Below are positions 304 through 33,110 of a DNA stretch of 36,469 nucleotides, piece after piece. The notes below the pieces were generated by a model. That model was not told where the DNA came from. It saw nothing but the letters and a program-made list of their open reading frames with translations, and made no database searches. Both the position numbers and the translations under genes were made by a program. Position 1 is the first letter of the stretch; the number at the start of each line of letters is the position of its first letter. Origin of the DNA: Jimgerdemannia flammicorona (lineage: Eukaryota); NCBI GenBank assembly GCA_003990765.1, contig RBNJ01000218.1:1-36469 (forward strand), in the 5' to 3' direction.

Positions 304-2932
304 CTTACAACTACTGCTAAGAATCAAGAGTATAAGATTATAGAAGCTTACAATATATAAAAAGAATACAAAAACTTAGGTAAAGAATCTAAAGACTAGT
401 GTAAGACATCAGCCTATATCCCATATCAGATTGAAGATTATATCTTTGATGTCATCATTAATACTGGTGCTAGAGGATGCCTTATAAGTAAGAAGGCAAT
501 TAACTACCTAGGCTGAGACATTGAAGAGTCCACTAAGATGGTCTATATTATAGTAGATAGTATACAAGCTACCTCTCTTAGAAAAATCAGAGAAGTTTCT
601 ATTAAGATAGGAGGAGCTACTATCCTAGTAAATGTGATTGTTATCAGTACCACCAACTATAATATCCTTATTAGCAATCAATAGCTTCACAAGACCAAGG
701 CCATCATTGATCTCAATGTCCAGAAGATGCAGATCAACTATAGAGGAAGAAAGATATAAGTCTCTATCAATATCCATAAAGGAGTTCTATCAGATATAGA
801 GGAAAGAGATGAAGAGGATATAGAAGTCTTCATGCACTCAGTGAACAAGAATAAGAATAAGGCACCCAAGCTCACAGATGAGCAATAGTATAACAAGATC
901 ATCAATAGCTATGTCCCTTAAGGAAGATACCCCCATGATACTATAATATACTGCTCTGAATACCTGAATAACTACTGGTCCTATATCAGTGAAGTCAGGA
1001 AAATCTGCCAACAGAAATATAAATAAGAAGTCACTGAAGCAAAAAGGAAAGCCAAAGAAAATGACCAGCTCCTAGAGCTCCAAGCTGATAGTGATGATGA
1101 GAAGAAATAAGAACCAGACATTACTCTCAAGATCAAGAAGTTTTACCTCAAAGCCAAGATCTCAGAATACAAGACTAAAGGAGCTATAGGAATGGACCTT
1201 GCTAGCATTAAAGATACTACTCTTGAACCACAGATCACCACCCTACTTGATACTGAAATTAGAGTCAAGTTGCCAGAGAACCATACTGAAATTATCAAGA
1301 CCAGGAGCAGTCTGGCCAAAAGCGAAATCTCAGTTGAAGGAGGAGTAATTGACCCTGATTATGCTGGCAAGATCTTCCTTATAGTCAGGAATTACAACCC
1401 TACCACCCTATTTGAAGTCAAGAAGTATGACAGGATTGGCCAGATACTGATCCATGAAATCAAGAAGCCCAAGATCATGAAAGCCACCAAACTCATCAAG
1501 ATCAAGAGAGGAGAACAAGGCTTTGAATTTACTGGAAGAAGAGCCTATGTTATTACTAAGATTACTAAACTTGAGTACAAGAAAGACAAGAACCAGAACA
1601 AGCATACATATACTATTGGAGAAAACTTTCCCCTAGGAGAAGAACTTCTCAAGATACTATACCAGAATGAAGGAATACTTGCTACAGACTTCAGGGTTAT
1701 CTATAATCAAGAACCCAAGTACTATTATAAAGTTGACACTGGTATTACTAAGCCCATCTACCAGAAAGCCAGATCTATACCACCTGCCTACAGAGAATGG
1801 TTGTGAGCAGAACTCAAGGAAATGGAAGAAGCCAGAATCATCAAGCAAGCTATCAGTCCCTGGACTTCACCCATTGTCCTTGTCCTGAAGAAAGGAAGCA
1901 AGCCTAGAGAGTTTGTGCCAAGACTCTGTATTGACTACAGAAAGCTTAATGCAATCACCAAGAAGAATAGGCAGTCCTTGCCAAATATTCAAGAAATCCT
2001 TATCATCCTTAGAAGTGAATCCAAATACTACACTATCTTGAATCTGTTCTCAGGCTTCTACCAGATTGGTCTCACTCAAGATACCAGTGAGAAATCAGTC
2101 TTCATCATACCTGATGCTACTTATATCTACCTGTGAATACTATTTGGAATGTACAATGCCCCAGCAAGTTTTTAGTAAATGATAAACAGAGTTTTCAGCA
2201 ACAAGATTGGAAAATAGCTCTTTGTCTATGTTGATGATGTGATCATCTTTAGCAATACTGTATGGAAATATGTCAACTATATACAGCTAGTCCTCAAGAA
2301 GCTCAAGGAGCATGGCCTCTATATCAAGCCCAAGAAATGTAAGTTTGTAGCTCAGAAAATCACCTATCTAGGATACCTCATCAATCAGACCAGAATCCAC
2401 ACAGACTCCATAAAGATTGAGACTATTGTAGCCTACCCAAGATCCAGAATAACTACAGAAGTCCATGCCTTCCTTGGACTAGCTAGCTACTACAGAAGAT
2501 TCATTAAAGGATACTCCAACATTGCAGTACCTATTTATGAGCTACTGAAAAAGGAGACCAAATTCAAATAGACCAAAGAATACCAAGAAATCTTCAATAA
2601 ACTTAAGACTAGGTTGACCCAAGCACCTATCCTTAAAAGACCAGATTGGAACCTAGAGTTCATCCTGCAGACAGATGTAAGTACTATAGAACTTAGAGCA
2701 GTCCTAGCTCAGAAGAAAGATGGATATGAATATGTCATCTCCTATATAAGCCAAGGTACCTGTAGAGCAGAACAGAACTATAAGTTATATAAGCTTAAAT
2801 GCTTAGCAGTAGTTTGGGCAGTAGACAAGTTCCACTATAATCTAGCTGGGAAATACTTCACTATTCAAACAGACCAATCTGCTCTTATCTGGCTATTCCA
2901 CACTCTGAACCCCAAAGGAATATATGCCAGAT
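304..2932 (+). pseudogene. pol: Element A: decayed Ty3/Gypsy pol, 5' part (protease - Cys/His module - dUTPase - RT - RNase H)
   Basis: One frame with many stops. Motifs: IINTGARGC (DTGA-like, 460-471), dUTPase motifs, SPWTSPIVLV..RLCIDYRKLN, FVYVDDVIIFS, FLGLASYYRRFIKGYS and FILQTDVS..AVVWAVDKF..IQTDQSAL. The frame is cut at KGIYAR by the B LTR. Confidence 0.93.
1126..1536 (+). pseudogene. dut: dUTPase domain of element A (between protease and RT)
   Basis: All five trimeric dUTPase motifs are recognisable: GAIGMDL, RSSLAK, GGVIDPDYAGKI, DRIGQIL and RGEQGFEFTG. Confidence 0.92.
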
Positions 2933-2959
2933 TGTAAGTGCACAACCTCCAAGCCACCA

Positions 2960-3155
2960 AAATTATATGTCACCCTCTGAACAAACTACTGAAATCACAT
3001 GCGACCCCTGAACAAATCTGGAAATCACCTGCTTGATCACAAAGCTGAGTCAAACCGAAGTCACAGCATACAAAGCTGAGTCAATACAAAGTCACAGAAC
3101 ACAAGATCTATACAAATAGAATCTTACCAATCAGGACCAAACATATATATACTGA
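2960..3155 (+). promoter_or_regulatory. Putative upstream promoter module of the LTR (for the U3 ORF)
   Basis: TGAGTCA (AP-1/Gcn4-type) sites at 3046-3052 and 3077-3083 within a 31-bp duplication. A CRE-like TGACGT is intact in the C copies. A TATATA-type run lies ~75 bp before ATG 3225. Confidence 0.4.
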
Positions 3156-3224
3156 GTATCAAGATACATCGAAACAGAGAACCAAAACAAACAACAATAA
3201 CCACAAACTTCCAAACACATAAAC

Positions 3225-4322
3225 ATGACCACCAAGATTTACAACTGTATCTGTGCTGACATTTGGAATGCCATTGTCAACCGAGCTACACCCCCTCTGC
3301 CTCTTATGAATATCCATAGCCTGGCACCCCTCTACTTCATAGAAGCCCGATGGAATGCTCTGAACATACTTAGTGAGGCCCACTGAATCGGACAAATCTC
3401 AAGCTATTACCAGATTGGCTGCCTCCTGGAAGATATGGTCAAACACCACCACGATACAGACATTACCCAGATGTCTCAACACCAGAAGCTCATTGCCTGC
3501 AAACATTGAGAACTTTTCTACGAGTATAGTACTATTATTCCCCGTCTCCGAGTTACTACCAGCAAAATGGTTGCTACCCTGTCCTATGGCCAAATCGATG
3601 ACATGATATAAGAACTCAACCACAAGTACCTTGAGTACGTCCAGACCACAGACAGAACCTTCCCACACCCTGATGACCATATCCTGCATATGCCCTAAGT
3701 CGGATACACTATGAAGGACATCTACGATATAATCTGGTTCAATAAAGATGAAGCAGAAGATAATGATCCCTTAGACACCGATATGACCCCAAGCCAAGGA
3801 TCTCTACCAACACTTATTACACCACCAACCTTGCTAATGAACTTACAACAGTTCATAACCACATACAAGACTTATTGGGACAATGACCACTGGCATGAAT
3901 ACCAATCCACATTCACCCCCGATTACTTTAACTATAATGAAGAGACCGGAGAATACAATCTGTACCTCCAGACAACCCTTGAGATCGAACCAACCACTCC
4001 ACCACCCGAGTATGAGCGACATGAACCACAGCCACCAGCATACTACAATCCTGTGACTCATAGTACTGTAACCTACAGAAGGTATGCAGATAGCGAATCT
4101 GATGAAAGCAAAGATAATGCACCACTCCTTCATCCACCAATACCTTATCCAGCATACGAGACAGATAATGCTATCCTGTGGGATGGTGACAAAGTTCCGA
4201 TGTATTATTACCTCAGTGAATAAGGAGAAGTAATCCACAAACCACTTTTCCTAGATGACTACTTCATCAGAGATGATACAATCGATGGTGATGTCATCGA
4301 GGACTACCCAGACAGTGCCTAA
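3225..4322 (+). pseudogene. LTR(U3)-encoded ORF, 365 codons, unknown acidic protein with PPxY motifs (B 5' LTR copy)
   Basis: ATG 3225 to TAA 4322 spans 1098 bp, the same length as in the other three LTRs. Internal stops are C>T type and are open in at least one other copy. It includes track ORF 3711..4223. Confidence 0.85.
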
Positions 4323-4511
4323 ACCCATAAATAGCCTAGCAGTCATAGTATAGTTAGATTAGTATTGTATGATATGACTGTGAACTGACTCAGCAGTCAG
4401 ATGATCTCTTGACATGTCAGATCATACTTGTACTACGTGACTGTATTCTGACTCAGCAAGACACTTAGTGCTACATCTATATTGAGCATAGTCCAGATAG
4501 CCCCTCACTAG

Positions 4512-4519
4512 TATAAATA
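4512..4519 (+). promoter_or_regulatory. TATA box of the B LTR (likely genomic RNA promoter)
   Basis: TATAAATA followed by a C-run, conserved in all four B/C LTRs. The same TATAAATA followed by a C-run occurs in the D LTR (17251-17258). TGACTCA lies upstream at 4386-4392. Confidence 0.65.
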
Positions 4520-5002
4520 CCCCCTCCCCCAGACCTCAGAATCTCAGACACAAATATACAAGAACATTCCTGAATACTTCCCCCACAATATCTCTTCATA
4601 CAAACTACTCCTAGTATAGCAATATCATGAATAGCAAATAAATCTATTTGATAACTCTCAAACTACTCTTAAGTAAATCTGCTCCCTGTTAGGTCCCACT
4701 CTGAACCCCATCATGAAATTTCTAATTGGGTATTGTCTGCAGCAATATGCTGATTCAACTAAGCTGGTCTTAGTTTCTTGAACTTCCTGAAATACAGAAA
4801 ATCCTGAAAATCCAGAACTAGTCCGAAAAAGGACTTTGGTTGAGACATCAACCTGATCTTGAAATCAATAAGTATAGAGGATGTACTCCATATGAAATTG
4901 ATCTTGACCATAAGAAAACAATCTTCCAGAATATCTAGAACTTCCAGAAAACCCTTCCAGAACTACGTAACAGTTACCCTAAAAAGCAACCCTCTTACAA
5001 CT

Positions 5003-5015
5003 TGGGAGTAGCGGT
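5003..5015 (+). other. Primer-binding site of B (initiator tRNA-Met type, mutated)
   Basis: TGGGAGTAGCGGT lies 3 nt after the LTR. The consensus with C gives TGGTAGCAGCGGT, identical to D's PBS. Confidence 0.75.
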
Positions 5016-5106
5016 TTACAATCCAATTCCACTTCAAGACACTTCCTCACCCTGCTACAAACCCTTCTGCGAATTCCTACAAGTTGGTATAAAGCCCAAC
5101 CTCTGA

Positions 5107-8100
5107 ACTGGAATTTATTCTGAACCATCTGATAATCTGGAGAGAATTGAACCTGATGTATAAGGACAATTTGACCTCCACACCTGCAACAAGTGGGATA
5201 AACTTCATTCAAAGAAAGAAGTACTCCAATTAAACCAGCAAATAGGTGAAACCCTTTTCACCAAACTCCTTGCACTACACCCAGCAAGTCAAGACAAAGA
5301 AGGTCTTATTGAAGCCTTCTTTACTCTTCTCAATAAGAGTTTTGTCAGCTCCACAAATCTGAGCAACCTAGGACAATCAGCAGTAGTCTTTCTAGCCTTA
5401 GTTCCTCATGAAGCCCAAGCCTCTATAGCCAAGTGGCTCAACTCTACTGACTTTCACCATACCAGGACTAAGACCACATTATACTACTAATTCCAGAACA
5501 GCAAGGCCTGCTATATTCTTAAAGAAGAGGTAAGAGAAACCCTTCATCAACTACCTGACCCTGAACCTGAAGCAGGCCCTGCTACAGCCCTACCTGAATC
5601 TGAAACCAATACTGAACCTGAACTTAACTTTGGATTAAGTTCATCTGAAATCAGATATACAACTGATTCTGTCTACTTTGACACTGAGCAAACCCAATTA
5701 CACGGGGACCAAACTGAAGAAGAGGAGGAGTATCTCACTGAATTCGATCCCAGATATACCACTGAAGGAGATGCACTTCCATCAGGACAAAATACACCTA
5801 CACAGCAACAAACAGCTATCTATCAAGCCCTTACTCCAGATCCACAACTACTACTTCAGCAACTTACACAGACCCAAAGAACACCATCACACTCCACACC
5901 AGTACCTCAAGTAGTACTAGTAACACCACTACCAGCAGTCCAACTGCCTCCAGTAAACAACATAGCGAACCAACAGATTCTAGATCTCACAGCTCAGGTA
6001 GCCATAATGGCAGCAACCATTACTGCCTTAGCTGAACAGACCTGATCTACCAAAAATCTGAGCCTACCTACCTTCAATGGTACTGCATAAGAAGTCCAAA
6101 GCTTTATTAGTATAGTTGACACCAACTTCAAAGCCAATCAATGGACCAATGAGTGAGTTGCTAACTGTATTCTGATAAATAATCAAGACCACACTCTGGA
6201 ACAACTCTTTGCTACAACTACAGCCTATGTCCACTAAGTTGTTACATTCTTCTGAGGACCTGCCGAAGAATGGCGGCGAACCCTTCCTGAAAAACCCCTC
6301 ATATGAGATACCTGACCTGCAGTAGTTGCTCAGAATACAGCAAACAATGCCCCAGGATACGGAGCCCATCCTGCAGCCCCTAGACTCAAACAACTCATGA
6401 TTGCCCAATACCGCAGCGAAACCATGATTGCCAAATCTTGAGTAAAACTCTGCAACCTTAAATTTGATATACATGGCAAAGAAGAATTCGAAACCTTCTA
6501 TACAAAACTCGAGTCACTCCTGAACACTGTTGGCCTAGGATATATCGCCAATGATGAAGCACGAAATGATACAAGAGCAGACCATTTATTTGATGCTCTA
6601 CCTGAATAGCTTACTAGAAAAATCCGAGAACAAGGTCACCCAGTTGGTTGTGACCACCAACAATGGTGCCTGGCAAGAATCAAGACCATGGTCAAGTGAA
6701 TCCTAACAGCTGGACCAATTCTGCCCCAAAGATAATTCAATAACAAGGAAAGAACTTGGACCAAGAAAGAAGAACCCAAGCATGAAGCATCCCGAGCTCC
6801 CTCCACATCTATCTCTTGGACACCCAGAAATCATGAACCCACCCAGCCAAGTACCTTCAAGAAACTTACTGAAGGCGAAAGGAATGAACTTCGAAGAAGT
6901 GGAGCATGCTTCTATTGCCGAAAGACAGAACACATGGCCAGTGCCTGCTCTAATCGAAAACCCTGAACAGTAACCCAAGCAACTGTTACCACTCTGCACC
7001 ACCTCAACAACCTGACCACCAGAACACTGGACTTTGTCAAGTTAAGACAAACTGCTAAGGCCCTAATCAAAAGAAGTCAGAAAGCAGCTGGATATGACCT
7101 GTATGTAGCCGAAGAAGCTACAGTTTCCAACCAAGAAGTCAAACAAGTCTACACAGAAATCAGCATCCAAATACCTGAAAGACATATTGGAAAAATATGC
7201 TGTCGCAGCAGCCTAGCATTGAAAGGACTCACAGTAGAAGGAGGAATTATCAATGAAGATTACATAGGCGAAATCATTGTCCTCATCCGAAACCATAGTT
7301 GGATACCCTTCAAGATCCCTATTGGTTTCTGCATTGCCCAGATCCTATTTGAAAAAATTGAGTCAACCCTGACAGTTAAGGAAGTCCCTGAACTACTATC
7401 CACCATCTGAGGATCTAAAGGATTTGGCTCATCAAACAAGGCCCCAACCCAACCTATCATGAGCAAAGAAGAACAATTCTACAAGAAGATTGAAGATGGA
7501 TATATACCAAGTGGCTGATGCCCTCATGGCATTGAAATGTACTCTTCTCAAATAATTGATGATTGCTTTTCTTGTGTCAATGAACTGGCTCAAAGAAGAA
7601 CTAACAGAAGGAAAGCTCAAACAACCAAAATCACCACTATTGGATCAGACAAACTGCTCACCCTTAAGGCTTTTGTCAACAGAGCACCTGTCAAGATTAT
7701 GATAGACAGTGGTGCCTCAGGCAACTTCATCAATGAAGAGATAGCCAACAGACTCAAGGTCTTCACCTCCCCAGTACAACAAACTCAAGCAGTTGCTACA
7801 GCTGATGGAACCTCACATGTTATTAGCAAAGAAGTTCGCAATCTATCTTTCCGAATTGGTGACTACTAAGTACATGTTACCCTCCAGATCATACCACTTC
7901 CTGACAATGAAATCATCCTTGGAACTCTATGGTTAAAACAAGAGAACCCCATGATCGATTGGGTAAACCATTCTTTGACCATCAAGAAAGGATGCCACAA
8001 CTTCAAATTATAAGGTGAAAAGGACCCACTCAACTCTAGTAACCCTGGACAAAAGATCACCCACATCAACAAGCTACAACTCAAGAAATTGGCCAAGAAG

Positions 8101-11094
8101 TGCCCTCTCTTTGCCATCTCCATCCGTTCACCCAAAGGAGAACTCGAGAATTCTGAAGAAGATTTTTCCAAAGTTGACAGCCGTGTCAGACCACTACTTC
8201 AGAAATTTCGGGACATATTTCCAAAGAAGCTCCTGAAAGGCCTACCTCCCAAATGAGCAGTAGACCATGCTATCAAGACTATCCCAGATGCCAAACCAGC
8301 CTTCAAGTCAATCTACCACATGTCTCCGAGAGAAATTGATGCACTCAAGAAGGAAATCGATGAACTCCTAGAATAAGGATTCATCAGACCTAGTGTATTA
8401 CCCTATGGTACACCAGTCCTCTTCATTGTCAAGAAAGGAGGAGACCTGCGAATGTGTATTGACTACCGAGATCTCAATGAACAGACCATCAAGAACTGTT
8501 GCCCACTACCAAGGATCGATGAAATATTCGATAGGCTCACCAACCCACAATTCATGAGCTCCTTTGACCTGTGAAATGGTTACTGGCAAATTGCTATGAA
8601 AGAAGAAGACATCTATAAGACAGCTTTCCAAACTCACTATAGACACTTCAAGTTCCTGGTTATGCCCTTTGGCTTAACTAATGCTCCAGCAACCTTCCAG
8701 ATACTGATGAATACCATTCTGCATCCATATTTGGACAAATTCGTTGTCGTCTACATTGATGACATCCTAGTCTTCAGCAAAACTCTGGAAGAACATCTTG
8801 AACACCTTGAACTAGTACTACTGAAACTCTAAGAAAACTGACTCTTTGCAAAACTCAGCAAGTGTGAATTTCTCCTGAAAGAAATTCAATTCCTTAGACA
8901 CATTGTCACTCCAAATAGAATCAAAGTGGACCCCAGCAAAATCTCGGCAATCAAGGATTAGTCCAGACCCAAGAAGCTGAAAGACCTCCAGTCATTCCTA
9001 GGATTAGCAAACTATTACAGGCGATTTGTTGCCAACTTTGCTAAAATCGCTACTGCCCTCACCCAAATAACCAAGCACAGCAAGAAATAAGAACAACCCT
9101 GGACCATAAAACAAGAGAAAGACTTCAACAATCTTGTAAATTGGGGACCCAAACAAGATACTGCCTTTCAAGTACTAAAAGATGCCCTGATAATCACTCC
9201 AGTACTTCAAGTGGCAAATCCTGCCCTACCATATAAAGTTACTACTGATGCCTCTGATCTAGCTCTTGGAGCAGTGCTCATGCAAGAAGGACACCCTGTG
9301 GCCTATCACTCCCGCAAGTTCAATGATGCCGAAATCAACTATGCAACCCATGAGAAGGAAATGCTAGTCATTGTAGATACTCTGATCAAATGGTGACCAT
9401 ACCTAGAAGGAGCACACTTCACTGTATTGACTGACCACAAGTCATTAGTCAACATCAAGACCCAGGCTACCCTTTCACGAAAGCAAGCCAGATGGATGAA
9501 AGTCCTCACCAACTTTGACAATAAAATCCAGTACCGCCCTGGCAAGGAAAATATTGTTGCCGATGCAATCTCCAGACCACCAATTGAAGAAGTTATCCAA
9601 ACTCTCACCTTGGTTACAAACTCCATCATGGAACAAATTATCACAGCATACACTGATGATAAGGAAGCTCAAGCACTCTGAGAAATTCTGAATAGTGATG
9701 ATGCTTACAAGTATACCCAGTACAATCAATACCAACTGAAGGATAGTACTCTCTACTATAAGGACAGACTGTATGTCCCAAACAACTGAGACCTCTGAAG
9801 GACTATCCTATTTGAATGTCATTATGCCCCTATAGCTAGACATTTAGGATTTGATAAATGTTATAAAGTTATCTCCTGAAACTTTTATTGGCCCCACATG
9901 GCAGATCAGCTCAAGACCTACATCACTTCCTGTAATGCCTACCAACGAAACAAGTCCTCAATACTAGCAAAACCTGGCTTACTTCACCCTATCCCAGTAC
10001 CATCTGCGAATTGGGAACAAATCTCTATGGACTTTATTGTACAACTACTCCAAACTAAGAATGGGAAAGATGCAATTGTTGTCTTTGTAGACTACCTCAG
10101 CAAACAAGCCCACTTCGTGCCTACTACTACTACTGCAACAGCACCAGACATAGCCATACTCTTGTTTGACAATATCTTCCACTATCATGGTCTTCCTAAG
10201 ATCATTGTTAGTGACCGAGATCTGAAATTTACCAGCCACTTTTGGAAAGCCTTCCATGCACACCTTGGAACAAAACTTGCACTATCTACAGCCTTTTACC
10301 CAGAAACTGATGGCCAAACTGAAAGAATGAACCGAACTCTAGAACAAATGTTAAGGAACTATGTTTCCTACAGACAAGATGATTGGCATGAACACCTGAT
10401 AGCAGTAGAGTTTGCTTATAACAACAGCAAGCAAGCCTCTCTGGGAATGACCCCATTCTTTGCCAATACTGGACAAAACCCAAACACCCCTTTGACACTT
10501 ATCCGAACCACCAAAGAACCCTCCACAGTCGAAGCTGTTGAAGAATTCCTACTCTGAATATGTAATCTAAGCCAGATTGCAATTGAGAATTTATCACGAG
10601 CTCAAGAACAACAGTCACAGTATGTTAACCAACACCGCCGAGAAGAAACCTTTGATATTGGAGAAAAAGTTCTACTGGATATCAGAGGATACTGAGTTGA
10701 CAACCTGAAGCACAGACCATCTACAAAACTGAACAGCAAGTTCATTGGACCATTTGAAGTCATTGCATAAGTCTCTCCAACCTCCTATAAACTGGCGCTA
10801 CCAGATACCATTAAGATTCACTCAGTCTTTAATGTTCAATGTCTCAAGCAATATAATGAGAATGATGATGAGCTATTTCCAAACCGGACCATCAAACCAC
10901 CTACACCTGTCATTATTAATGATCAAGAAGAATATGAAGTTGAACAAATCCTCAACAAACATGGCAACAAAAACCACCCCAAGTACCTTGTCAAATGGAA
11001 AGGTTATCCAATCCATGACACAACCTGGGAACCCAAGACCAATCTCTAGAATGCTACCAACCTAGTTCAGGAATATGATTTCTTGAACAACTAG
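5107..11094 (+). pseudogene. gag-pol: Element B single-frame gag-pol (leader extension - Gag - Zn knuckle - dUTPase - Cys/His module - PR - RT - RH - IN - chromodomain)
   Basis: All domains are in one frame with point stops only. Motifs: LPTFNGT (Gag), CFYCRKTEHMASAC (6907-6948), [44 protein letters not shown] and EYEVEQIL..YLVKWKGY..TWEP. The probable Gag AUG position is 5962 (ATA here, ATG in C). Confidence 0.93.
7027..7434 (+). pseudogene. dut: dUTPase domain of element B (between Zn knuckle and protease)
   Basis: Motifs AAGYDL, RSSLA, GGIINEDYIGEI, IAQILF and GSKGFGSS. Confidence 0.92.
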
Positions 11095-11520: not shown

Positions 11521-13466
11521 TGTAAGCGCACAACCTCCAAGCTACCAAAATTATATATCACCCTCTGAACAAGCCACTGAAATCACATGCGACCCCTGAA
11601 CAAATCTGGAAATCACCTGCTTGATCACAAAGCTGAGTCAAACCGAAGTCACAGTGCACAAAGCTGAGTCAATATAAAGTCACAGAACACAAGATCTATG
11701 CAAACAGAATCTTACCAATCAGGACCAAATGCATATATACCAAGCACCAAGACATGTCAAAACAGAGAACCAAAACAAACAACAATAACCACAAACTTCC
11801 AAACACACAAACATGACCACTGAGATCTACAACCATATCTGTGCTGACATTTGGAATACCATTGTCAACCGAGCCACACCCCCTTTGCCTCTCATGAATA
11901 TCCATAGCCTGACACCCCTCTACTTTGTGGAAGCCCGATGGAATGCTCTAAACATACTTAGTGAGGCCCACTGAATCGGACAAATCTCAAGCTACTATCA
12001 GATTAGCTACCTCCTGGAAGATATGGTCAAACACCACTATGATACAGATATTACCCAGATGTCTCAACACCAGAAGCTCATTGCCTGCAAACATTGAGAA
12101 CTCTTCTACGAGTATAGTACCATTATTCCCCGCCTCTAAGTTACTATCAGTAAAATGGTTGCTACCCTGTCCTATAGCCAAATCAATGACATGATACAAG
12201 AACTCAACCACAAGTACCTTGAGTACATTCAGACCACAGACAGAACCTTCCCACACCCTGATGACCATATCCTGCATATGCCCCAAGTCGGATATGCTAT
12301 GAAGGACATCTATGATATAATCCAGTTCGATGAAGATGAAGCAGAAGACAATGATCCCTTGGACACCGATATGACCCCAAGCTAAGGATCTCTGCCAACA
12401 CTTATTACACCACCAATCTTGCCAATGAACTTACAACAGTTCATAACCACATACAAGACTTATTGGGACAATGACCACTGGTATGAATACCAACTCGTGT
12501 TCACCCCCGATTACTTCAACTACAATGAAGAGACTGAAGAATACAATCTATACCTCCAGATAACTCTCGAGATCGAACCAACCACCCCACCACCCAAGTA
12601 TGAGCGATATGAACCACAGCCACCAGCATACTACAATCCCGTGACTCATAGTACTGTAACCTACAGAAGGTACGCAGATAGCGAATCCGATGAAAGTGAA
12701 GACAATGCACCACTCCTTCATCCACCAATACCTTATCCAGCATATGAGACAGATGATGCTATCCTGTGGGACAGTGACAAAGTTCCAATGTATTATTACC
12801 TCAGTGAACAAGGAGAAGTAATCTACGAACTACTTTTCCTAGATGACTACTTCATCAGAGATAATGCAATTGATGGTGATGTCATCGAGGACTACCCAGA
12901 CAGTGCCTAAACCCATAAATAGCCTAGCAGTCATAGTATAGTTAGATTAGCATTGTATGACGTAACTGTGAACTGACTTAGCAGTCAGATGATCTCTTGA
13001 CATATCAGATCACACTTGTACTACGTGACTGCATTCCAACTCAGCAAGGCACTTAGTACTACATCCATATTGAGCATAGTCCAGATAGCCCCTCATTAGT
13101 ATAAATATCCCCTCCCCCAGACCTCAGAATCTCAGACACAAACATATAAGAACATTCCTGAATACTTCCCCCACAATATCTCTTCATACAAACTACTCCT
13201 AGTATAGCAATATCATGAATAGCAAATAAATCTATTTGATAACCCTCAAACTACTCTTAAGTAAATCCGCTCTCTGTTAGGTCTCACTCCTAACCTCATC
13301 ACAAAATTTCCTAATTGGGTATTGTCTGCAGTGATACACTGATTCAACTAAGCTGATCTTAGTTTCTTGAACTTCCTGAAATATGAAAAATCCTGAACAT
13401 CCAGAACTAGTCCAAAAAAGGACTTTGATTGAGATGTCAATCTGATCTTGAAATCAATAAGTGTAG
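11521..13466 (+). repeat. Element B 3' LTR, first 1946 bp (interrupted by C)
   Basis: Colinear with the 5' LTR and breaks at TSD TGTAG (13462-13466). Confidence 0.95.
11813..12910 (+). pseudogene. LTR(U3) ORF, B 3' LTR copy
   Basis: ATG 11813 to TAA 12910 spans 1098 bp and includes track ORFs 12155..12385 and 12419..12910. Confidence 0.85.
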
Positions 13467-16997: not shown

Positions 16998-17400
16998 TGT
17001 AACATTTTAGCATAGTTTATTCCTTTTCTTTGTCTTTCTCCAATATTCTATAACCTTCTGGTACTTTCCGAATGCTTAGAAATCCTTTCTTGGCACTGAG
17101 CATTAACTAGTACTTATTTAGTTAGTCACTGAATGTCCTGGAAACTTGTAGAACTTTATTTGTCATCATTTATCATCTTTGCCAAGAACTTTCCTCTTGG
17201 CATTTTCCTTTGATTTCTCAGATCCTTCTGGATCCTTCTTTCAGATCTTGTATAAATATCCCCTTTGTTCTCATAAATAAAGCCTCAGAATATTTTCTCC
17301 CAGAAATCTTTTGAGAACACTTGAATCCTTAGTATCTCTTCGAGCTACTTAGGACTACCAGAATTAGTCACTTCCTCATTTAGAAACTAGAACCATTACA
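16998..17400 (+). repeat. Element D 5' LTR
   Basis: 403 bp with about 12 differences from the 3' LTR by eye, all transitions. Confidence 0.97.
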
Positions 17401-17402
17401 CT

Positions 17403-17415
17403 TGGTAGCAGCGGT
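17403..17415 (+). other. Primer-binding site of D (initiator tRNA-Met type)
   Basis: TGGTAGCAGCGGT lies 2 nt after the LTR. TGGTAGC is complementary to the 3' end (..GCUACCA) of eukaryotic tRNAi-Met. Confidence 0.85.
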
Positions 17416-17468
17416 GAAGTTACACCTAGCCTTATTAAGACACCTCTCAAGATATCAGTCACAACACT

Positions 17469-20400
17469 ATGGAGGACAATGGGTGGAACCCTTCATACAA
17501 TGCCTATGGTCCAGGCAATACCTCTTACCATCAGCAAGAAGAAGAAGAGGAACAGCCAATCCCCATCTAGTCAACTGGGTCCATCGAGAGTCTTTTGCAA
17601 ACTGCATTTGCTCAGATCGCCCAACTTCAAGAACGTGTAGAAAGAAAGGAAAGCAAGGCCTCTGCTCATACCTCCACACCTCTACCGACATCAATACATC
17701 CGACAGCAGTCACTATCAAGCCCCAGAAGCCTGATACCTTTGATGGTCAAAGAGGAGGACTGTCTACTGACACCTGGCTTTTCCAATTGGAGCAATATGG
17801 AGAACTGACCAATTTGGAAGAAACAACACTAGTCCAATTTGCCACCACACTCCTCTGAGAGAATGCTGCAATCTGGTGGCGAAATCATGTCCAGAATACC
17901 AGATTCTCTGGCCAAATCAAGACCTGGGGCAAATTCTCTAATGCTATTCAAGGCCAATTCAAACCAGTCAACAGCACCAAGACTGCACGAGACTGTCTGG
18001 CAAATGTCAAACAACTCAAGTCTGTACAAGCATACAATACACAATTCCTGTCAATTCTGCTAGAATTACCACATGTCACTGAAGACGAGAAGGTTGACAA
18101 GTATATCCAAGGTTTGAAAGGCCAAACTCGAGTTCGTGTTGAACTAGAAGAACCCAAGGACCTAGACACAGCAATGAAAATTGCTGATAGGTTTGATGTC
18201 ATCACCTATGGTCACCACTTTGAACAGAAGAGACCACCTTTCAACAACAACAACAACCACAGAAGGGAGGAACCCAAAGTCAGAACTGTTGGACCTGCCC
18301 CCATAGACCTAGACACCATCGACAAGAGCAAGAAAGGCAAGCTTACACCCAAGGAAAAGGAGCACCTTAAGAAGGCTGGAGCCTACTTCTTTTGCCATCA
18401 GCCTGATCACATTGCAACCAAATGTCCCAAGAAAACCGCGGAACCAAAGAGGATCCTGGTCCTGTCCAAAGACACTCAAGGTCAACCAGTTGAATAAGAA
18501 GTTGTACTCAATTTCATGCGAGTCAACTCCAAGGCCCAGATCCCTCAAGTACAGTCAGAAGGAGCCATTGGTTTGGACCTTCAAGCAGTACAACAAGTCA
18601 CTATTCCGGCACATGAAAGAAGGCTCATCCCAACTGGCCTTTCAGTCGAAATCCCCAAGAAACATTATGCAAGAATTGCACCAAAATCTGGCCTCAGCTT
18701 CAAGCACTTATTGGATGTTGGTGCTAGAGTCATAGACTCTGACTTCCGAGGTGAAATGCAAGTTCTGCTAGTCAACCACAAGAACCAGCCATATACCATC
18801 AATGAAGGAGATAGAATTGCACAGCTCATTCTGGAGTGAGCCACCCTACCAGTCGTCAAAGAAGTTACCAAGCTGTCTTCCACTAAGCGAGATCAGAAAG
18901 GCTATGGCAGCACTGACAAAGTTGCAAGCATAGCTGAGAACTGAGCCAATTCAATGCTCATTTTCAAAGGTCTAGTCAAGGGACAAGAACTAGATGTTCT
19001 CATAGACAGTGGAGCTGTTGGGAACTTCATCAACAAGAACCTCATCGACAAACTCAAGATTCTCACCAAACCAGCTGGCAAGAATGGTGGAGTTGTCACA
19101 GCAGATGGCACCACCTTACCAATTGACTCAATTACCGCTAAACTTCCCCTCAAGATCCAGAAGTACTGGGAACATTTAGATTTCGAGGTAGCACCACTAG
19201 GAGACCATGACCTGATCCTAGGCAAACCCTGGCTTACCCGGCACAACCCTCAGATTGATTGGACCAAGAATGAAGTCACCTTGATTCAAGATAGAGTCAA
19301 CATTACCATCAAGCCAGACAAGACTTAGACGAGAACCCCAATTGCTACCCTTTCAGCAATCCAGTTCAAGAAGGCCCTCAAGAAAGCTACCTGTGCCTTT
19401 GTAGCACTGATCCAACCAAAGAAAGAAGACAAGAAGCTATCAATCAATGAAAGCATCAAGTTACTGCTGAACAAGTACAAGGATGTCTTTCCAGGCAAAC
19501 TACCTGGTCTACCACCTTCAAGAGACCATGACCACGAAATCAAGTTGGTACCTGATGCAGCTATACCCAAGAAGAAAATGTACCACATGTCTCCACTCGA
19601 AATTGAAGCAGTCAAGAAGGAACTCAACGAACTCATCGAGTGAGGAGCCATTCAGCCAAGCAAGTCACCCTTTGGCTCCCCAGTCCTATTCGTCAAGAAA
19701 AAGGATGATACTCTGTGAATGTGCATAGACTACCGAGCACTCAACAAGATCACTATCAAGAACCACTATCTGCTACCGCTCATAGATCAAATCTTTGATG
19801 CCCTCAAGAATGCAAAGTACTTCACCAAGATTGATCTCACCTCTGGGTATCACCAAATTCGAATCAAGCCAGAAGATATACCCAAGACTGCCTTTATGAC
19901 ACCCTTTGGACTCTACAAGTTTCTAGTCATGGCCTTTGATCTCACCAATGCACCAGCAACCTTTCAAGACCTCATGCAAACTGTCTTCAAGGACCAGCTT
20001 TATATCTTTGTACTCGTGTACATTGATGACATCCTGATCTTCAGTAGCACTGAAGAAGAACACCTCAAGCACATCGAACAAGTCCTCAAGATCCTCCACA
20101 AGAACAAGCTCTATGCAAAGCTCAAGAAATGTGAATTTTTCAAGGATAAAGTTGAATACCTTGGACACATTGTATCAGCCAAAGGAATTCAAGTAGACCC
20201 AAGAAAAATACAAGCCATTGAACAGTGGCCTGTATCCGCAAACCTCACTGAACTCAGGTCCTTCCTTGGTCTGGCTGGATACTACTGTCGATTTGTCAAG
20301 AACTTCTCTGGCATCGCAGAATCTTTGACAAACCTCCTGCAAAAGAAACCCAACTCTGACCTCTATGTTCCCTACATCTGGGATGCCTTCTGTCAACAAG

Positions 20401-22299
20401 CCTTTCAAGAACTCAAGAACTGCCTGACCCATGCACCTGTTCTTAGGAACATGGACCCAAACTTGAAGTTCATAGTCACTACAGATACATCTAACTTTGC
20501 CATTGGTGCAGTCATTTCTCAAGATGATGGTCAAGGACACCGACCTATTGCCTTTGAGTCAAGAAAATTGTCCCCAGCAGAACAAAAGCTGGCTACTCAT
20601 GAAAAGGAACTCCTGGCAATCATACATGCCCTCAAGACCTGGCGACACTATCTAGAAGGAGTTGAGTTCAATGTGATCACTGATCACAGATCCCTTCAGT
20701 ATATCAACACTCAACCAACCCTTTCTTGCCAACAAGCCAAGTGGAGTCAACTGCTTCAGACCTTTACCCCAAACATCATCTACAAGCCTGGCAAAACTCT
20801 AGTTGTACCAGATGCACTTTCAAGGAGACCTGACCTTGCCACAATTTTACAAGTCACTGTAGCATCTGAATTCCTCAACCAGATCAAGAAGGCATATGAA
20901 CAAGACCCTCTGGTTCTACAAAGGAACACTAAGGAATTCAAGGAAAAGTACACCATCAAGGACAACCTCGTGTACTATCAAGACAAAGTATATATTTCCT
21001 GCTAACCCTGAACTACAGTATAAGATGCTTCATGAACACCATGACTCCCCACTAGCTGGCCACCTTGGAACTGAGAAGACTATCAAGAATATCCAACAAG
21101 ACTACTACTAGCCAAACATGCTCAAGGAAATCAAGGAGTATGTTCAAAGCTGCGATCTTTGCCAAAGAAACAAGTCAAGCAACCAAGCACCTGCTGGTCT
21201 TCTACAATCTTTGTCAATTCCAACCAAGAAGTTCGAACAAGTCACAATGGACTTCATTGTACAACTCCCATGAACCAAAACAGGCTATGATGCTATTGTT
21301 GTGTTTGTGGACCATCTCACCAAGATTACAATCGCCAAGCCAACCACAACCAATGCCACTGCCCCAGAAATTGCAAGAATCTTCTTCAAGACTGTCTTCC
21401 GCCATTATGGACTTCCCCAAGTAATTATTAGCGACCATGACCCCAAGTTCACAAGTCACTTCTGGCAAGCACTCTTCAAGACCCTTGGAACCCAAATTGC
21501 TATGTCTATGGCTTTCCATCCTCAAACTGATGGACAGACAGAGTGAATGAACAGAATACTTGAACAAATGCTCAGAAACTACATGTCCTATGAGCAAGAT
21601 GATTGGGACCACTATCTGACTTACGCCGAGTTCGCCTACAACAATGCCAACCAATCATCAACAGGTCTTTCCCCATTTCAGCTACTTCACAGTCAAAACC
21701 CCGAGACCTCTGCAAGTCTAGTCCAATTCCAGCAATCCAGTCACACACAAGTCCCCACAGCCCAGAACCTTATCAACAAAATGGATTCCCTTCTCAAGAT
21801 TGCCACTATGAACCTGCAAAAGGCTCAGCAACATCAAGCTAAGTATGCAGATAAGAAGTGGCGAGATGTCATATACAATATTGGCGATATGGTTCTACTC
21901 AAAGCTGACAACATCAAGGCTTAATCTCAAGTCAACCGCCAGTCAGCCAAATTCCAGCCCAAGTATCTTAGACTCTTCGAGATTACTGAGCAAGTCTCTA
22001 CGTGGTCTTACCATCTCAACTTGCCAACAACCATATGTATACACTCAGTATTCCATATGTCACAACTCAAGGCCTGGAACCAGTCACCCCCATACTCTGG
22101 TCAAATTCCAATGCCATCAGTGCCAGTCATAGTTGAAGACCACATTGAGTATGAAGTCGAGAAAATCTTAGACAAACGAGTCCGATACTGTCACACAGAA
22201 TACCTAGTCAAGTGGATGGGTTACCCTGAATATGATGCCACCTGGGAACCTGCCACCAACCTCAAGAACTCCCAAGACCTCATCCAAGAGTTCGAGTAA
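17469..22299 (+). pseudogene. gag-pol: Element D gag-pol (Gag - Zn knuckle - dUTPase - PR - RT - RH - IN - chromodomain)
   Basis: ATG at 17469. Motifs: KPDTFDG, (Y)[53 protein letters not shown] and EYEVEKIL..YLVKWMGY..TWEP. It has point stops plus one frameshift near 20995-21000. Confidence 0.94.
18507..18917 (+). pseudogene. dut: dUTPase domain of element D (between Zn knuckle and protease)
   Basis: Motifs AIGLDL, PKSGLS, VIDSDFRGEM, GDRIAQLIL and RDQKGYGSTD. Confidence 0.94.
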
Positions 22300-22626
22300 A
22301 AAGGAACTCATTGACTGCCTATGAGGTTCTCCCCTTGGATAGTAGATGACCTACTGTGCTGATCAGGCATATTACACATTGGGGCTCTCTAAGGGATACA
22401 GCATCAGAAGCAAGAGATACAGGAGAACCCTATAAATCCTGCAACCAATGAGGTTCGAACCAGTTCTCATCCAATCAAGATGATACTTTGGCCCTCATCT
22501 TATACAAGGATGGCCAATCCTTGCCAATGAGTCGGTATATTTAATTTGAGTTTCTTTTAGTCTTATTGTTTATCATGTGTAACTTTGAGAATTCAACAAG
22601 GATGTTGATTCTTAAGGAGGGGGAGA

Positions 22627-23029
22627 TGTAACATTTTAGTGTAGTTTATTCCTTTTCTTTGTCTTTCTCCAATATTCTATAATCTTCTGGTACTTTTCGA
22701 ATACTTAGAAATCCTTTCTTGGCGCCGAGCATTAACTAGTACTTATTTAGTTAGTCACTGAATGTCCTGGAAACTTGTAGAACTTTATTTGTCATCATTT
22801 ATCATCTTTGCCGAGAACTTTCCTCTTGGCATTTTCCTTTGATTTCTCAGATCCTTCTGGATCCTTCTTTCAGATCTTGTATAAATATCCCCTTTGTTCT
22901 CATAAATAAAGCCTCAGAATATTTTCTCCCAGAAATCTTTCGAGAACACTTGAATCCTTAGTATCTTTTCGAGCTACTTAGGACTGCCAGAATTAGTCGC
23001 TTCCTCATTTAGAAACTAGAACCATTACA
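22627..23029 (+). repeat. Element D 3' LTR
   Basis: Direct repeat of 16998-17400, preceded by PPT AAGGAGGGGGAGA. Confidence 0.97.
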
Positions 23030-23034
23030 TTCAG

Positions 23035-26000
23035 GGTAGTTGTACAATGAAGTCTATAGAGATTTGTTCCCAATTTGCGGATGGTACTGGGATAGGGTGA
23101 AGTAAGCTGGGTTTTGCTAGTGTTGAGGACTTGTTTCATTGGCAGGCATCACAGGAAGTGATGTAGGTTTTGAGCTAATCTGCCATGCGGGGCCAATAGA
23201 AGTTTTGGGAGATAACTTTGTAACATTTATCAAATCCTAAATGTCCAGCTGTAGGGACATCATGACATTCGAATAGGATAGTCCTTCAGAGGTCTCAGTT
23301 GTTTGGAATATACAATCTGTCCTTGTAGTAGATAGCATTGTCCTTGAGTTGGTATTGATTGTACTGGGTATGCTTGTCAGCATCATCATTGTTCAGGATT
23401 TCTCGGAGTACTTGAGCTTCTTTATCATCAACACATACTGTGATGATTTGTTCTATGATAGTGTTGGTAACCAAGGTCAGAGTTTGAATAACCTCTTCAA
23501 TTAGTAGTCTGGAGATTGCATCGGCAACAATATTTTTCTTGCCAGGGCAGTACTGGATTTCGTAGTCAAAGTTGGTGAGGACTTTCATCCATCTAGCTTG
23601 CTTTTGGGAAAAGGTAGCCTGTGTCTTAATGTTGACTAATGACTTGTGGTCGGTCAATACAGTGAAGTGTGCTCTTTCTAGATATGATCGCCATTTGATC
23701 AGAGTGTCTACGATGGCTAGCATTTCCTTCTCATGAGTTGCATAGTTGATTTTGGCATCATTGAACTTGTGGGAGTGATAGGCCACAGGGTATTCTTCTT
23801 GCATGAGCACTGCTCCAAGAGCTAGGTCAGAGGCATCAGTGGTGACTTCATATGGTAGGGCAGGGTTTGCCGCTTGAAGTACTGGTGTGGTTATCAGAGC
23901 ATCTTTCAGCACTTGGAAGGCAGTATCTTGTTCGAGTCTCCAATTTACAAGATTGTTGAAGTCTTTCTCTTGTTTCATGGTCCAGGGTTGTTCTTGTTTC
24001 TTACTGTGCTTGGTCATTTGGGTGAGGGCAGTAGCAATTTTAGCAAAGTTGGCAATGAATCGCCTGTAATAGTTTGCTAATCCCAGGAATGACTGGAGGT
24101 CTTTTAGCTTCTTGGGTGTGGGCCAATCTTTGATTGCAGAGATTTTGCTGAGGTCCACTTTGATTCTATTTAGTATAACAATGTGTCCAAGGAATTGAAT
24201 TTCTTTCAGGAGAAATTCACACTTACTGAGTTTTGCAAAGAGTCTATTTTCTTGGAGTTTCAGTAGTACTAGTTCAAGGTGTTCAAGATGTTCCTCCAGG
24301 GTTTTGCTGAAGACTAGGATGTCATCAATGTAGACAACAATGAATTTGTCCAGGTATGGATGCAGAATGGTATTCATCAGTGTCTGGAAGGTTGCTGGAG
24401 CATTAGTTAAGCCAAAGGGCATAACCAGGAACTCAAAGTGTCCATAGCATGTTTGGAAAGCTGTCTTGTAGATGTCTTCTTCTTTCATGGCAATTTGCCA
24501 GTAACCATTTCATAGGTCAAAAGAGCTCATGAATTGTGGGTTGGTAAGTCTATCGAATATTTCACGATCCTTGGTAGTGGGCAACAGTTCTTGATAGTCT
24601 ATTCATTGAGATCATGGTAGTCAATGTATATTTGCAGATCTCCTCCTTTTTTGACAACAAAGAGGACTGGTGCACTATAGGGTGATACGCTGGGTCTGAT
24701 GAATCCTTGTTCTAGGAGTTCATTGATTTCCTTCTTGAGTGCATCAATTTCTCTCAGAGACATATGGTAGATTGACTTGAAGGCTGGTTTGGCATCTGAG
24801 ATAGTCTTGATTGTATGGTCTACTGCTCATTTGGGAGGTAGGCCTTTCGGGAGCTTCTTTGGGAATATGTCTTGGAATTTCTAGAGTAGTGGTCTGACAT
24901 GGTTGTCAATCTTGGAAAAATCTTCTTCAGAGTTCTTGGGTTCTCCTTTGGATGGTCAGATGGAGATAGCGAAGAGAGGGTATTTCTTGGCCAATTTCTT
25001 GATTTGTAGCTTGTTGATATGGGTGATCTTTGGTCCAGGGTCCCTAGAGTTGAGTGGGTCCTTTTTGCCTTGTAGTTTGAAGTTGTGGCATCCTTTCTTG
25101 ATGGTCAGGGAATGGTTTACCCAATCAATCATGGGGTTCTCTTATTTTAACCATAGAGTCCCAAGGATGATTTCATTGTCAAGAAGTGGTACAATTTAGA
25201 GAGTAACATGTACTCGGTAGTCACCAATTCAGAAGGGTAGATTGCGGACTTCTTTGCTAATAACATTTGAGGTTCAATCAGCTGTAGCAACTGCTTGAGT
25301 TTGCTGTACTGGAGAGGTGAAGACCTTGAGTCTGTTGGCTATCTCTTCATTGATGAAGTTGCCTGAGGCACCACTGTCTATCATAATCTTGACAGATGCT
25401 CCATTGACAAAAGCTTTAAGAGTGAGCAGTTTGTCTGATCCAATGGTGGTGATTTCAGTTGTAGGAGCCTTTCTTCTATTGGTTCTTCTTTGAGCCAGTT
25501 CGTTGACACAAGAGAAGCAATCATCAATTATTCGGGAAGAGTACATTCCAATACCATGAGGGCATTGGCCACTTGGTATATATCCATCTTCTATCTTCTT
25601 GTAGAATTGTTCTTCTTTGCTCATGGTAGGTTGGGCTAGAGCCTTGTTCTCGGATTTTTCTAGTAAGCCATTCAGGCAGGGCATCAAATAAATAGTCTGC
25701 TCTTGTACCATTTCATGTTTCATCATTGGCGATATATCCTAGGCCAACAGTGTTCAGGAGTGACTCGAGTTTTGTACAGAAGGTTTTGAATTCTTCTTTA
25801 CCATATACATCAAATTTGAGGTTGCAGAGTTTTACTTGAGATTCAGCAATCATGGTTTCACTATGGTATTGAACAATCATGAGTTGTTTGAGTCCAGGGG
25901 CTGCAGGATGGACTCCATATCCTGGGGCATTGTTTGCTGCATTCTGAGCAACTACTGCAGGTCAGGTATCCCATGTGAGGGGTTTTTCAGGAAGAGTTCA

Positions 26001-26315
26001 CCACCATTCTTTAGCAGGTCCTCGGAAGAATGTAACAACTTGGTGGACATAGGCTATAGTGGTAGCAAAGAGTTGTTCCAGAGTGTGGTCTTGATTGTTT
26101 GTCAGAACATAGTTAGCAACTCGCTCATTAGTCCATTGATTGGCTTCGAAGTTGGTGTCAACTACACTAATGAAGCTTTGGACTTCTTGTGCAGTACCAT
26201 TGAAGGTAGGTAGGCTCAGATTTTTGGTAGGTTGGGTCTGTTCAGCTAAGGCAGTGATAGTTGCTGCCATTATAGCTACTTGGGCTGTGAGATCAAGAAT
26301 CTGTTGGTTCACCAT
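23035..26315 (-). pseudogene. gag-pol: Element C gag-pol, 5' part (Gag N-half, deletion, Cys/His module, PR, RT, RH, IN N-terminus)
   Basis: Track ORFs 25998..26315, 25274..25726 and 23295..24488 match B. The Zn knuckle and dUTPase are missing at junction 25642-25648. Confidence 0.92.
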
Positions 26316-27277
26316 GTTGATTGCTGGAGGTGGTTGGACTGCTGGTAGTGGTGTTACTGGTACTACTTGAGGTACTGGTGCAGAGTGTGATGGGGTTCTT
26401 TGGGTCTGTGTAAGTTACTGGAGTAGTAGTTGTGGGTCTGGAGTAAGGGCTTGATAGATAGCTGTTTGTTGCTATGTAGGTGTATTCTGTCCTGATGGAC
26501 GTGTGTCTCCTTCAGTGGTGTATCCGGGATTGAATTCGGTGAGATACTCCTCCTCTTCTTCAGTTTGGTCCCCGTGTAATTGGGTTTGCTCTGCATCAAA
26601 GTAGACAGAATCAGTTGTATATCTGATTTCAGATGGACTTAATTCAAGGTCAAGTTCAGGTTTGGTATTGGTTTCAGATTTAGGTAGGGCTGTAGCAGGG
26701 CCTGCTTCAGGTTTGGGGTCAGGTAGTTGATGAAGAGTTTCTCTTGCTTCTTCTTTGAGGATATAGCAGGCCTTGCTGTTCTGGAATTGGTAGTATAATG
26801 TGGTCTTGGTCCTGGTACGGTGAAAGTCAGTAGAGTTGAGCCACTTGGCTATAGAGGCTTGGGCTTCGTGAGGAACTAAGGCTAGAAAGACTGCTGCTGG
26901 TTGTCCTAGGTCACTCAGATTTGTAGAGCTGACAAAACTCTTGTTGAGAAGAGTAAAGAAGGCTTCAATAAGACCTTCTTCATCTTTACTTGCTGGGTGT
27001 AGTGCAAGGAGTTCAGTGAATAGGGTTTCGCCTATTTGCTGGTTTAACCAGAGTACTTCTTTCTTTGAATGAAGTTTATCTCACTTATTGCAGGTGTGGA
27101 GGTCAAATTGTCCTTGTACATCAGGTTCAATTCTCTCCAGATTGTCAGATGGTTCAGGATAAATTCCAGTTCAGAGGTTGGGCTTTATACCAACTTATAG
27201 GAATTCTCGGAAGGGTTTGTAGTGAAGTGAGGAAGTGTCTTGAAGCAGAGTTGGATTGTAAACTGCTGCTACTAAGT

Positions 27278-29466: not shown

Positions 29467-29471
29467 CAGAT

Positions 29472-30050
29472 GGATCTATAAACTACAAGAGTATAACTAA
29501 ACTATCAAGCACTACTCAAGAAGAACCAACACCAATGCTGATGCACTCTCAAGGATACTCCAAAACACTCTCATCAAAACTATTTAACATGAATAAGGAG
29601 TTATACTATGGATTAATCAGCTACCTTAGGCAGTAGAAGATACCAAATCACCTTGAACCCTGAATAATTACTATTATCAACTGGACTTGGAAATAGTTTG
29701 AACTAAACAACACTATACTCAAAAAAGAAGGAAAGCTCATAATACCCAAACACAAGAAGTATCAAGTAATGAAGGTGGTATATGAATAAGAATATCTAAG
29801 AGGAACTAATATATATAACAAGGTAAAAAGAAACATGTGGTGGCCCAAAATAGAAGAAGATCTGCATTAATTTATCAAAGAGTATATTAAGTATCAAAAA
29901 CAGAAACAAGATCAGTAAGATCAGACACCCAGGTCATCAAGAATTGAGCCTATTTCTTTTTACTACATTGCAATAGATATTATTAGGCCACTACCAGTAA
30001 CACTATCAGGAAACTGCTACATCATAGTTATTATAGACCTCTTTACTAGG
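29472..30050 (+). pseudogene. pol: Element A continuation: RNase H end and integrase N-terminus, truncated
   Basis: WIYKLQEY..NTNADALSR, a degenerate HHCC region with WWPK, and IAIDIIRPLP..SGNCYIIVIIDLFTR. Confidence 0.88.
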
Positions 30051-30067
30051 CAGACTCTGGTGAACTG

Positions 30068-32517: not shown

Positions 32518-33110
32518 TAGTGCTCTGAATGAGTCAATCCAGATGGGATTCGGATGGGATTCAAATTCCATCTGGATCAACTCAGATGGGATTTGAATCC
32601 CATCCAGATAGATTCAAATCAACTATTGTTTTGATTTCCAAATTAGACAATTAAATGTTTACATCAATAACTCGATGAATAATTATCCAAATTTGATGAT
32701 CTTGGTGTCATTTGAAAGCCCTTAATAAGGCCTTTCTAATGATACCAAATATATTAAAATCGGATTACACATTGCTGAGATATTAATGAAACCGTTCCAT
32801 TTGACGAAATTTCCAAAATCGGCAAATCGAACAATTTCCAAAATCGGCGATCCAGATGGGTTTCTTCATATCTCAGCAACACATAATCCGATTTCAATGT
32901 TCTTGGTATCATTAGATAGGCCTTATTAAGGGCTTTCAAATGACACCAAGATTATCAAATTTGGAGGATTATTCATCGAGTTATTGACATAAACATTTAA
33001 TTGTCTAATTTGGAAATCAAAACAATGGTTGATTCGAATCCATCCAGATGGGATTCAATCTGAATCAATCCAAATCCAATCCAGATTAAATTGACTCATT
33101 AGGAGCACTA
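32518..33110. mobile_element. Fold-back hAT-like MITE 1 (593 bp)
   Basis: Termini TAGTGCTCTGAATGAGTCAA and TTGACTCATTAGGAGCACTA, with a near whole-length inverted repeat. It is an AT-rich island in the LINE. The 8-bp flanks GCTCTCTG / GCTTCCAG match 5/8 (degenerate TSD). Confidence 0.85.

Follow-up and report, generated by a model that had tools for sequence, protein, structure and literature searches.

A Met-free coding stretch upstream of gag in a nested Ty3/gypsy element of Jimgerdemannia flammicorona, and its possible translation from a non-AUG start

How can a retrotransposon translate the N-terminal part of its Gag if the frame that encodes it contains no methionine codon? The question is raised by an element, B, in a contig of Jimgerdemannia flammicorona (RBNJ01000218.1), of which the whole analyzed stretch of 36,469 nucleotides is referred to here as the window. 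The original prediction, made from the letters alone, was that a long open leader in frame with gag gives rise to a second, N-terminally extended Gag started at a codon other than AUG. The element and its reading frame are placed as follows.

2933..4999, plus strand: 5' LTR of element B, with TG...CA ends
5962..11094, plus strand: gag-pol of B, one frame broken by stops

By layout and domain content, B and a second copy, C, belong to a Ty3/gypsy chromovirus-type LTR retrotransposon. The structural marks present in B are paired TG...CA LTRs, a 5-bp target-site duplication (CAGAT, at 2928-2932 and 29467-29471), a primer-binding site (PBS) and a polypurine tract. Its frame encodes, in this order, a capsid-like region, zinc knuckle, dUTPase, protease, RT, RNase H, integrase and chromodomain (all but the capsid by Pfam), with the dUTPase sitting between zinc knuckle and protease and the chromodomain at the integrase C-terminus (PF00385, E 5.5e-15). 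The capsid region of the lineage (5962-6720 in B; residues 235-490 in the relative P0002) has no Pfam capsid match in either, resembles Retrotrans_gag by Atlas features in P0002 (0.93) and conserves a C-x-H-x-Q-W-C motif near its end. The 3' LTR of B begins at 11521 and is split by copy C, which lies on the minus strand (29339-13467) and shares about 90% identity with B; within the integrase of C, a third element, D, is inserted. B and C differ at 948 positions, 844 of them transitions, and the differing fraction is 62-70% at CpG sites and 17-21% at CpA sites.

Further observations concern the rest of the window. Copy C lacks about 800 bases equivalent to B 6636-7434 (gag end, zinc knuckle and dUTPase), with the junction at 25642-25648. 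Two TGAs common to B and C at 9787-9798 lie between RNase H and integrase in an otherwise continuous frame, with no ATG at the junction; decay may be a simpler reading than a split integrase. The U3 part of the LTR (LTR of about 2 kb) contains a 411-codon frame without shared stops (11675-12908, plus strand; about 3090-4320 in the 5' LTR) that is present in all four B/C LTRs; its predicted product matches no Pfam family and is acidic and rich in Met (12 residues). Element D (16998-23029, plus strand) represents a different chromodomain Ty3/gypsy family with 400-bp LTRs and an ordinary layout; its ATGs start 68 nt past the LTR, so an ATG-free leader is not general in the window. B was inserted into a fragment of another dUTPase-RT-RNase H element (1111-2937), the window starts with a 33-bp tandem array (1-290), and a decayed LINE-like (non-LTR) element follows at 29470-35050 on the plus strand (RT match in 33061-35049, E 3.4e-13), interrupted by a 466-bp palindrome at 32593-33058, with a second palindrome at 35076-35346.

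The stretch in question and the first strong start downstream of it are these:

5107..5961, plus strand: 285-codon stretch of B in the gag frame
26316..27170, minus strand: equivalent 285-codon stretch of copy C, with its CTG at 27140-27138
5962..5964, plus strand: predicted short-form start, which is ATA in B
26313..26315, minus strand: short-form ATG of copy C, in the context AACATGG

Copy C aligns to B over 5107-5961 without a single gap, and thus without the frameshifts that the original prediction had named as an objection to itself. In neither copy is the gag frame open as it stands, B having stops at 5161 and 5488 and C at the B-equivalent positions 5194, 5803 and 5860. Yet each of these stops faces, in the other copy, a sense codon one transition away, and the gag frame has no stop common to both copies (0/285 codons), compared with 10/284 and 19/284 codons in the other two frames. 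When the aligned columns were shuffled, a frame free of shared stops arose in 0 of 5000 trials, and the best frame had 9.3 shared stops on average. The claim of an open frame consequently holds for the B/C consensus and fails for each copy by itself. In-frame Met is absent from both copies over the whole of 4750-5961 (0/285 codons in the stretch versus 28/1702 downstream), so that the upstream in-frame ATG, the second objection foreseen, was not encountered in either. The individual readings of the original prediction were likewise borne out: B has ATGs at 5156, 5408 and 5771 and C has three (B-equivalent 5156, 5294 and 5681), of which only that at 5156 is common to both while the other four pair with ACA or ACG; the CTG at 5137 stands as AATCTGG in both copies; and the short-form start reads ATG in C (26315) and ATA in B. 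At the 5962 position, the relative P0008 begins with MAD, a start that is the gene caller's choice; P0016 has IAD (Ile), and L001 and P0006 have no Met there. Contigs of 4 sequencing runs cover 30/30 bins of 4500-7100 with one weak joint (4684-4753). Of their 498 variant rows in this region, none among the 40 listed falls within 4921-5469, and the indels listed (12/21) all fall within 4548-4721. At least 15 runs matched, with a best share of 0.24 and no RNA run among those listed.

Whether the stretch encodes a protein was approached through homology and through the pattern of synonymous change, and the two parts distinguished below are drawn from both.

5137..5556, plus strand: Gag N-terminal domain of about 140 aa, probably helical, by homology to P0016 and bridged to L001
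5557..5961, plus strand: 135-aa linker rich in Thr, Pro, Glu and Gln, in open frame

A HMMER search of 1.84 billion proteins with the translation of 4822-6999 gave 41 matching proteins, and in one of them only, P0016, was the N-terminal domain the best-matching stretch (36% identity over query 197-410, E 3.8e-14). The two share the motif W..S..[FY]H.TRT..[ST]LY, and P0016 has an acidic linker of similar kind. P0016 aligns significantly with B (z 10.0), with C (z 10.8) and with L001 (z 12.8), the last being an intact, chromodomain- and dUTPase-bearing relative and the sole locus among 105 pattern matches in metagenome contigs. Directly, L001 is not significantly similar to B or C (z 0.6 and 1.7), and a profile of B, C and P0016 finds it at E 7.8e-5 with a probability of 62% over 49 columns. 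Thus, the homology is bridged via P0016, and only the domain's second half is covered firmly. The N-termini of P0028 and P0006 were also considered as homologues and set aside (z 0.5-2.6, not significant). Between B and C, synonymous differences are in excess in 5107-5556 (16/30 versus 11.2 expected; P 0.036, one of nine such tests run), significantly so in pol (109/217 versus 74.9) and integrase (61/104 versus 39.1), and not in the gag body (23/58 versus 20.1, P 0.24) or the linker (13/32 versus 13.1). The homology to P0016 and the synonymous excess in 5107-5556 together support the coding nature proposed for the stretch. By these sequence comparisons it encodes protein, namely the N-terminal domain that Gag normally has in this lineage, followed by a linker, and is no leader added in front of Gag.

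The domain belongs to an unnamed family. Pfam has no family for the 285 codons, the Atlas gave no usable match for the L001 domain, and Foldseek with the L001 model gave no match at E 0.001 or better. The predicted folds are poor (pLDDT 53.8 from a single sequence, 46.8 from four), and the six helices that both low-confidence models place in similar order are a hint only. Word-index protein searches returned 0/2859 candidates for the leader and 0/1764 for the gag body, a gag profile search 2/8000 candidates, both already known proteins, and locus scans no pattern match in viral contigs (0/33, 0/5 and 0/61) or prokaryote genomes (0/7). A 19-base motif gave 96 stretches, none of which matches the window beyond 25 nt.

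In L001 the same part of Gag starts conventionally. Its start, ACAATGG, lies 82 nt past the LTR and precedes the capsid region by about 230 residues, with four ATGs in the 700 nt after it. As the stretch in B and C is homologous to this AUG-started N-terminus, the long form would be ancestral and the short form derived. The assembly of L001 (1-6740) is circularly permuted, with only one LTR (about 2776-3314) and a single long frame, and in its Gag an insert of about 150 residues separates the zinc knuckle from the dUTPase.

The position at which translation of the stretch might begin depends on the following features of the LTR and leader.

4512..4521, plus strand: TATA-like box, putative LTR promoter
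4627..4641, plus strand: four-codon uORF, whose ATG is the only one past the TATA-like box found in all four LTR copies
4822..4999, plus strand: U5 part of the gag frame, non-coding by the tests applied
5003..5014, plus strand: PBS, like TGGTAGCAGCG in element D and L001
5104..5106, plus strand: TGA common to both copies, probably bounding the frame on its 5' side
5137..5139, plus strand: CTG flanked in B and C alike by A (-3) and G (+4), the leading candidate for initiating the long form

The PBS is presumably of the initiator-tRNA type. An AATAAA occurs at about 4636, past the TATA-like box, and the R/U5 ATGs other than that of the uORF vary among the LTR copies in the manner of decayed ACG. 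The shared TGA at 5104 is the simplest, and probable, 5' limit of the frame; however, five shared TGAs also occur downstream among 1434 gag-pol coding codons, so this codon is no proof of a boundary. Near-cognate codons that are common to B and C and flanked by a purine (-3) and G (+4) number four in 5000-5961, two of them in frame (CTG 5137 and ATT 5146) and two upstream and out of frame (TTG 5084 and CTG 5108). The CTG at 5137 is present in 2/2 copies, B and C being those on which the start-site comparison rests, and the sole intact relative with DNA, L001, has an ATG. Aligned end to end under five gap settings with each of the two copies, Met1 of L001 falls on 5137 in 8/10 runs and on 5113 in 2/10. 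The scores are low (-5 to 35) and the direct similarity is not significant, so this match is only suggestive. A hairpin about 14 nt downstream would be expected to stimulate a near-cognate start; no stable one was found 10-18 nt after CTG 5137, where decayed copies may have lost the pairing. Entry by frameshifting from the shared ATG at 5156 was also considered and rejected, as this ATG has a weak context and opens a 25-codon uORF in which no slippery heptamer was seen by eye.

The leader is poor in ATG in all frames. A site was counted as decay-resistant if both copies have ATG or if one has ATG opposite ATA; by this count the 960-nt leader has 1 such site, and gag, pol and integrase together (4039 nt) have 92 (Fisher P 7e-8). 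With composition controlled by shuffling the leader codons, 7.2-7.7 ATGs are expected versus 3 seen (P 0.024 and 0.039). The predicted depletion is therefore real, but smaller than the first figure implies. Also, the pol of L001 has only 15 ATGs in 2631 nt, so a low ATG density can arise without leaky scanning.

Taken together, the coding feature is real, and non-AUG initiation is its leading but unproven explanation. We propose, with a rough probability of 0.52, that a near-cognate start followed by leaky scanning to 5962 yields both a long and a short Gag-Pol. In the B/C family the N-terminal domain would start at a near-cognate codon, with CUG 5137 the likeliest and AUU 5146 a possible alternative; the first strong AUG is that at 5962, 275 codons past the CUG. 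Of the scanning ribosomes, a minority would initiate at the CUG, giving a long Gag-Pol of about 1,985 codons; the others would pass through the AUG-free region and translate, from the capsid region on, a short form of about 1,710 codons. A single RNA would in this way supply the two in a fixed ratio. An open frame together with the loss of ATG from all frames calls for two simultaneous selective pressures, and leaky scanning would provide both. More speculatively, particles might consist mainly of the short form with a minor share of the long one, whose soluble helical domain might bind a host or membrane partner. The fuller scenario, to which we give somewhat less than an even chance, is that the swap of AUG for CUG, the purging of AUG from about 1.3 kb and a strong internal AUG have made an obligatory Gag N-terminal domain optional, with one RNA giving a minor long and a major short Gag-Pol, as an independent parallel to glyco-Gag expression that carries a soluble domain.

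Three other explanations share most of the remaining probability, each of them being unlikely. It is possible that B and C descend from a relic or non-autonomous lineage whose parent had lost the AUG, so that the domain is untranslated and the elements spread on the short Gag or in trans. The homologous domain is AUG-started in L001, a CTG is one change away from ATG, and the synonymous excess is modest (P 0.036-0.039) and absent from the linker, all of which would suit such a history. On the other hand, the near-total loss of ATG from three frames takes many substitutions, and a frame free of selection would be expected to gain stops, of which none is shared. B and C are moreover distinct sub-lineages with lineage-specific LTR differences, and it is between these that the domain shows its excess.

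About as improbable is that an ordinary or weak AUG was lost from both copies, the start being one of the in-frame ATA codons common to B and C (5089, 5242 or 5425); in a weak context such a start would still let leaky scanning yield two forms, as in feline leukemia virus. Downstream, 7/25 in-frame Met sites are ATA in one copy, the site at 5962 is ATA in B, and the shared TGAs within gag-pol show that double hits do occur. At such a loss of ATG to ATA (about 13-16% per copy), loss in both copies is possible, and 5089 lies 90 nt past the LTR, near the 82 nt of L001. Still, the chance of a double loss is only about 0.016-0.026 per site, a start at 5089 requires in addition that TGA 5104 be a double hit (about 0.15), and one at 5242 leaves 45 upstream open codons unexplained.

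We regard as comparably doubtful a scheme with two RNAs or with non-scanning entry, in which the short form would be translated from an RNA that is spliced or started internally, after the manner of Ty1i RNA and p22, or would be reached by shunting or internal entry, while the long form would begin at some other site or on a separate RNA. Besides the Ty1 precedent (PMC4551931), B and C both have a TATAAA at 5088, which would allow an internal start (4401-5961 has just one other TATA-like hexamer), and the leader from the LTR TATA-like box to 5962 would be about 1.4 kb long with one four-codon uORF. At the composition of the leader, however, about two such hexamers are estimated by chance, and the only ATG of all four copies (4627) runs into a stop before any GT. 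Splicing that removes the region had been a further objection named in the original prediction, and no consensus donor was found in 4546-5965 of B. In any case, the long form would remain AUG-less.

Last, the suggestion that the frame runs back across the PBS into U5 (about 4822) is very improbable and was not upheld: the 5' LTRs of B and C do share no stop between 4822 and 5103, but lineage-specific stops are fixed in both B LTRs (TAG 4936) and in both C LTRs (TAA 4987), every one of the four has a TAG at 4819, the ATG at 4747 is present in just 1/4 LTR copies and so is that at 4918, and synonymous differences over 4822-5106 show no excess (7/25 versus 7.6 expected).

Returning to a near-cognate start with leaky scanning, it would, if true, be a third route, beside frameshifting and splicing, by which a single-frame retrotransposon makes two structural products. 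Annotation from the first ATG would miss a 275-codon conserved part of Gag, and the contrast between AUG in L001 and CUG in B and C would make the function of the N-terminal domain directly testable. Non-AUG Gag starts are already described for gammaretroviruses (PMC3542737) and for the domesticated PEG10 (PMC2800197), and among titles and abstract openings of the open-licence literature none was found for a mobile Ty3/gypsy element. Two items from this literature were set aside as parallels, since PMC7175516 concerns CUG decoding in Candida, and bioRxiv 10.1101/2025.03.14.642691 deals with small ORFs that precede gag as separate units and include a transmembrane segment.

By domain content, with chromodomain and dUTPase, the element is like the fungal chromoviruses PosPlaTy3-3, -4 and -5, the Phanerochaete elements and Tuber Tmt1 (PMC2864245). 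Long and short Gag products, here predicted, are also known from Ty1, where p22 comes from the internal Ty1i RNA (PMC4551931). As described there, p22 arises from a subgenomic RNA, has no N-terminal half of the capsid and restricts transposition, whereas the predicted short form of B and C keeps the whole capsid region and pol. As for initiation itself, near-cognate starts are reported to give about 2-30% initiation and to need a strong context (PMC3542737), and they are used in fungi (PMC5487733). In Neurospora, cpc-1 has a comparable long AUG-free in-frame extension, started at CUG, AUU or ACG; this is a transcription-factor mRNA under uORF control, and for its extension, conservation across about 100 species and tests both in vitro and in vivo are described (PMC5487733). 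PEG10, a domesticated gag-pol gene, likewise makes Gag-like protein from an upstream in-frame CUG as well as a downstream AUG, in its case demonstrated by mutagenesis, but it is an immobile mammalian host gene with an extension of 34 aa (PMC2800197).

The closest likeness, drawn already in the original prediction, is to MLV glyco-Gag (gPr80) and its FeLV homologue, in which, as proposed for B and C, an upstream in-frame CUG in strong context gives an N-terminally extended Gag and leaky scanning the AUG-started one, and a homologous segment is AUG-started in a related element (PMC3542737). The analogy stands for translation and fails for the membrane anchor. The MLV extension has a signal peptide and its product is described as a glycosylated surface protein (PMC3542737), whereas a hydropathy scan of this part of Gag in B, C, L001 and P0016 found no hydrophobic, signal or transmembrane segment (best 19-residue values of 1.11, 0.98, 0.6 and 0.88, respectively), and the three N-x-S/T sequons in the stretch are uninformative without ER entry. 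The absent anchor rules the stretch out as glyco-Gag proper. It differs from glyco-Gag also in spanning 275 codons, in belonging to a Ty3/gypsy element in which no env was seen, and in that its domain is part of the normal Gag of a relative.
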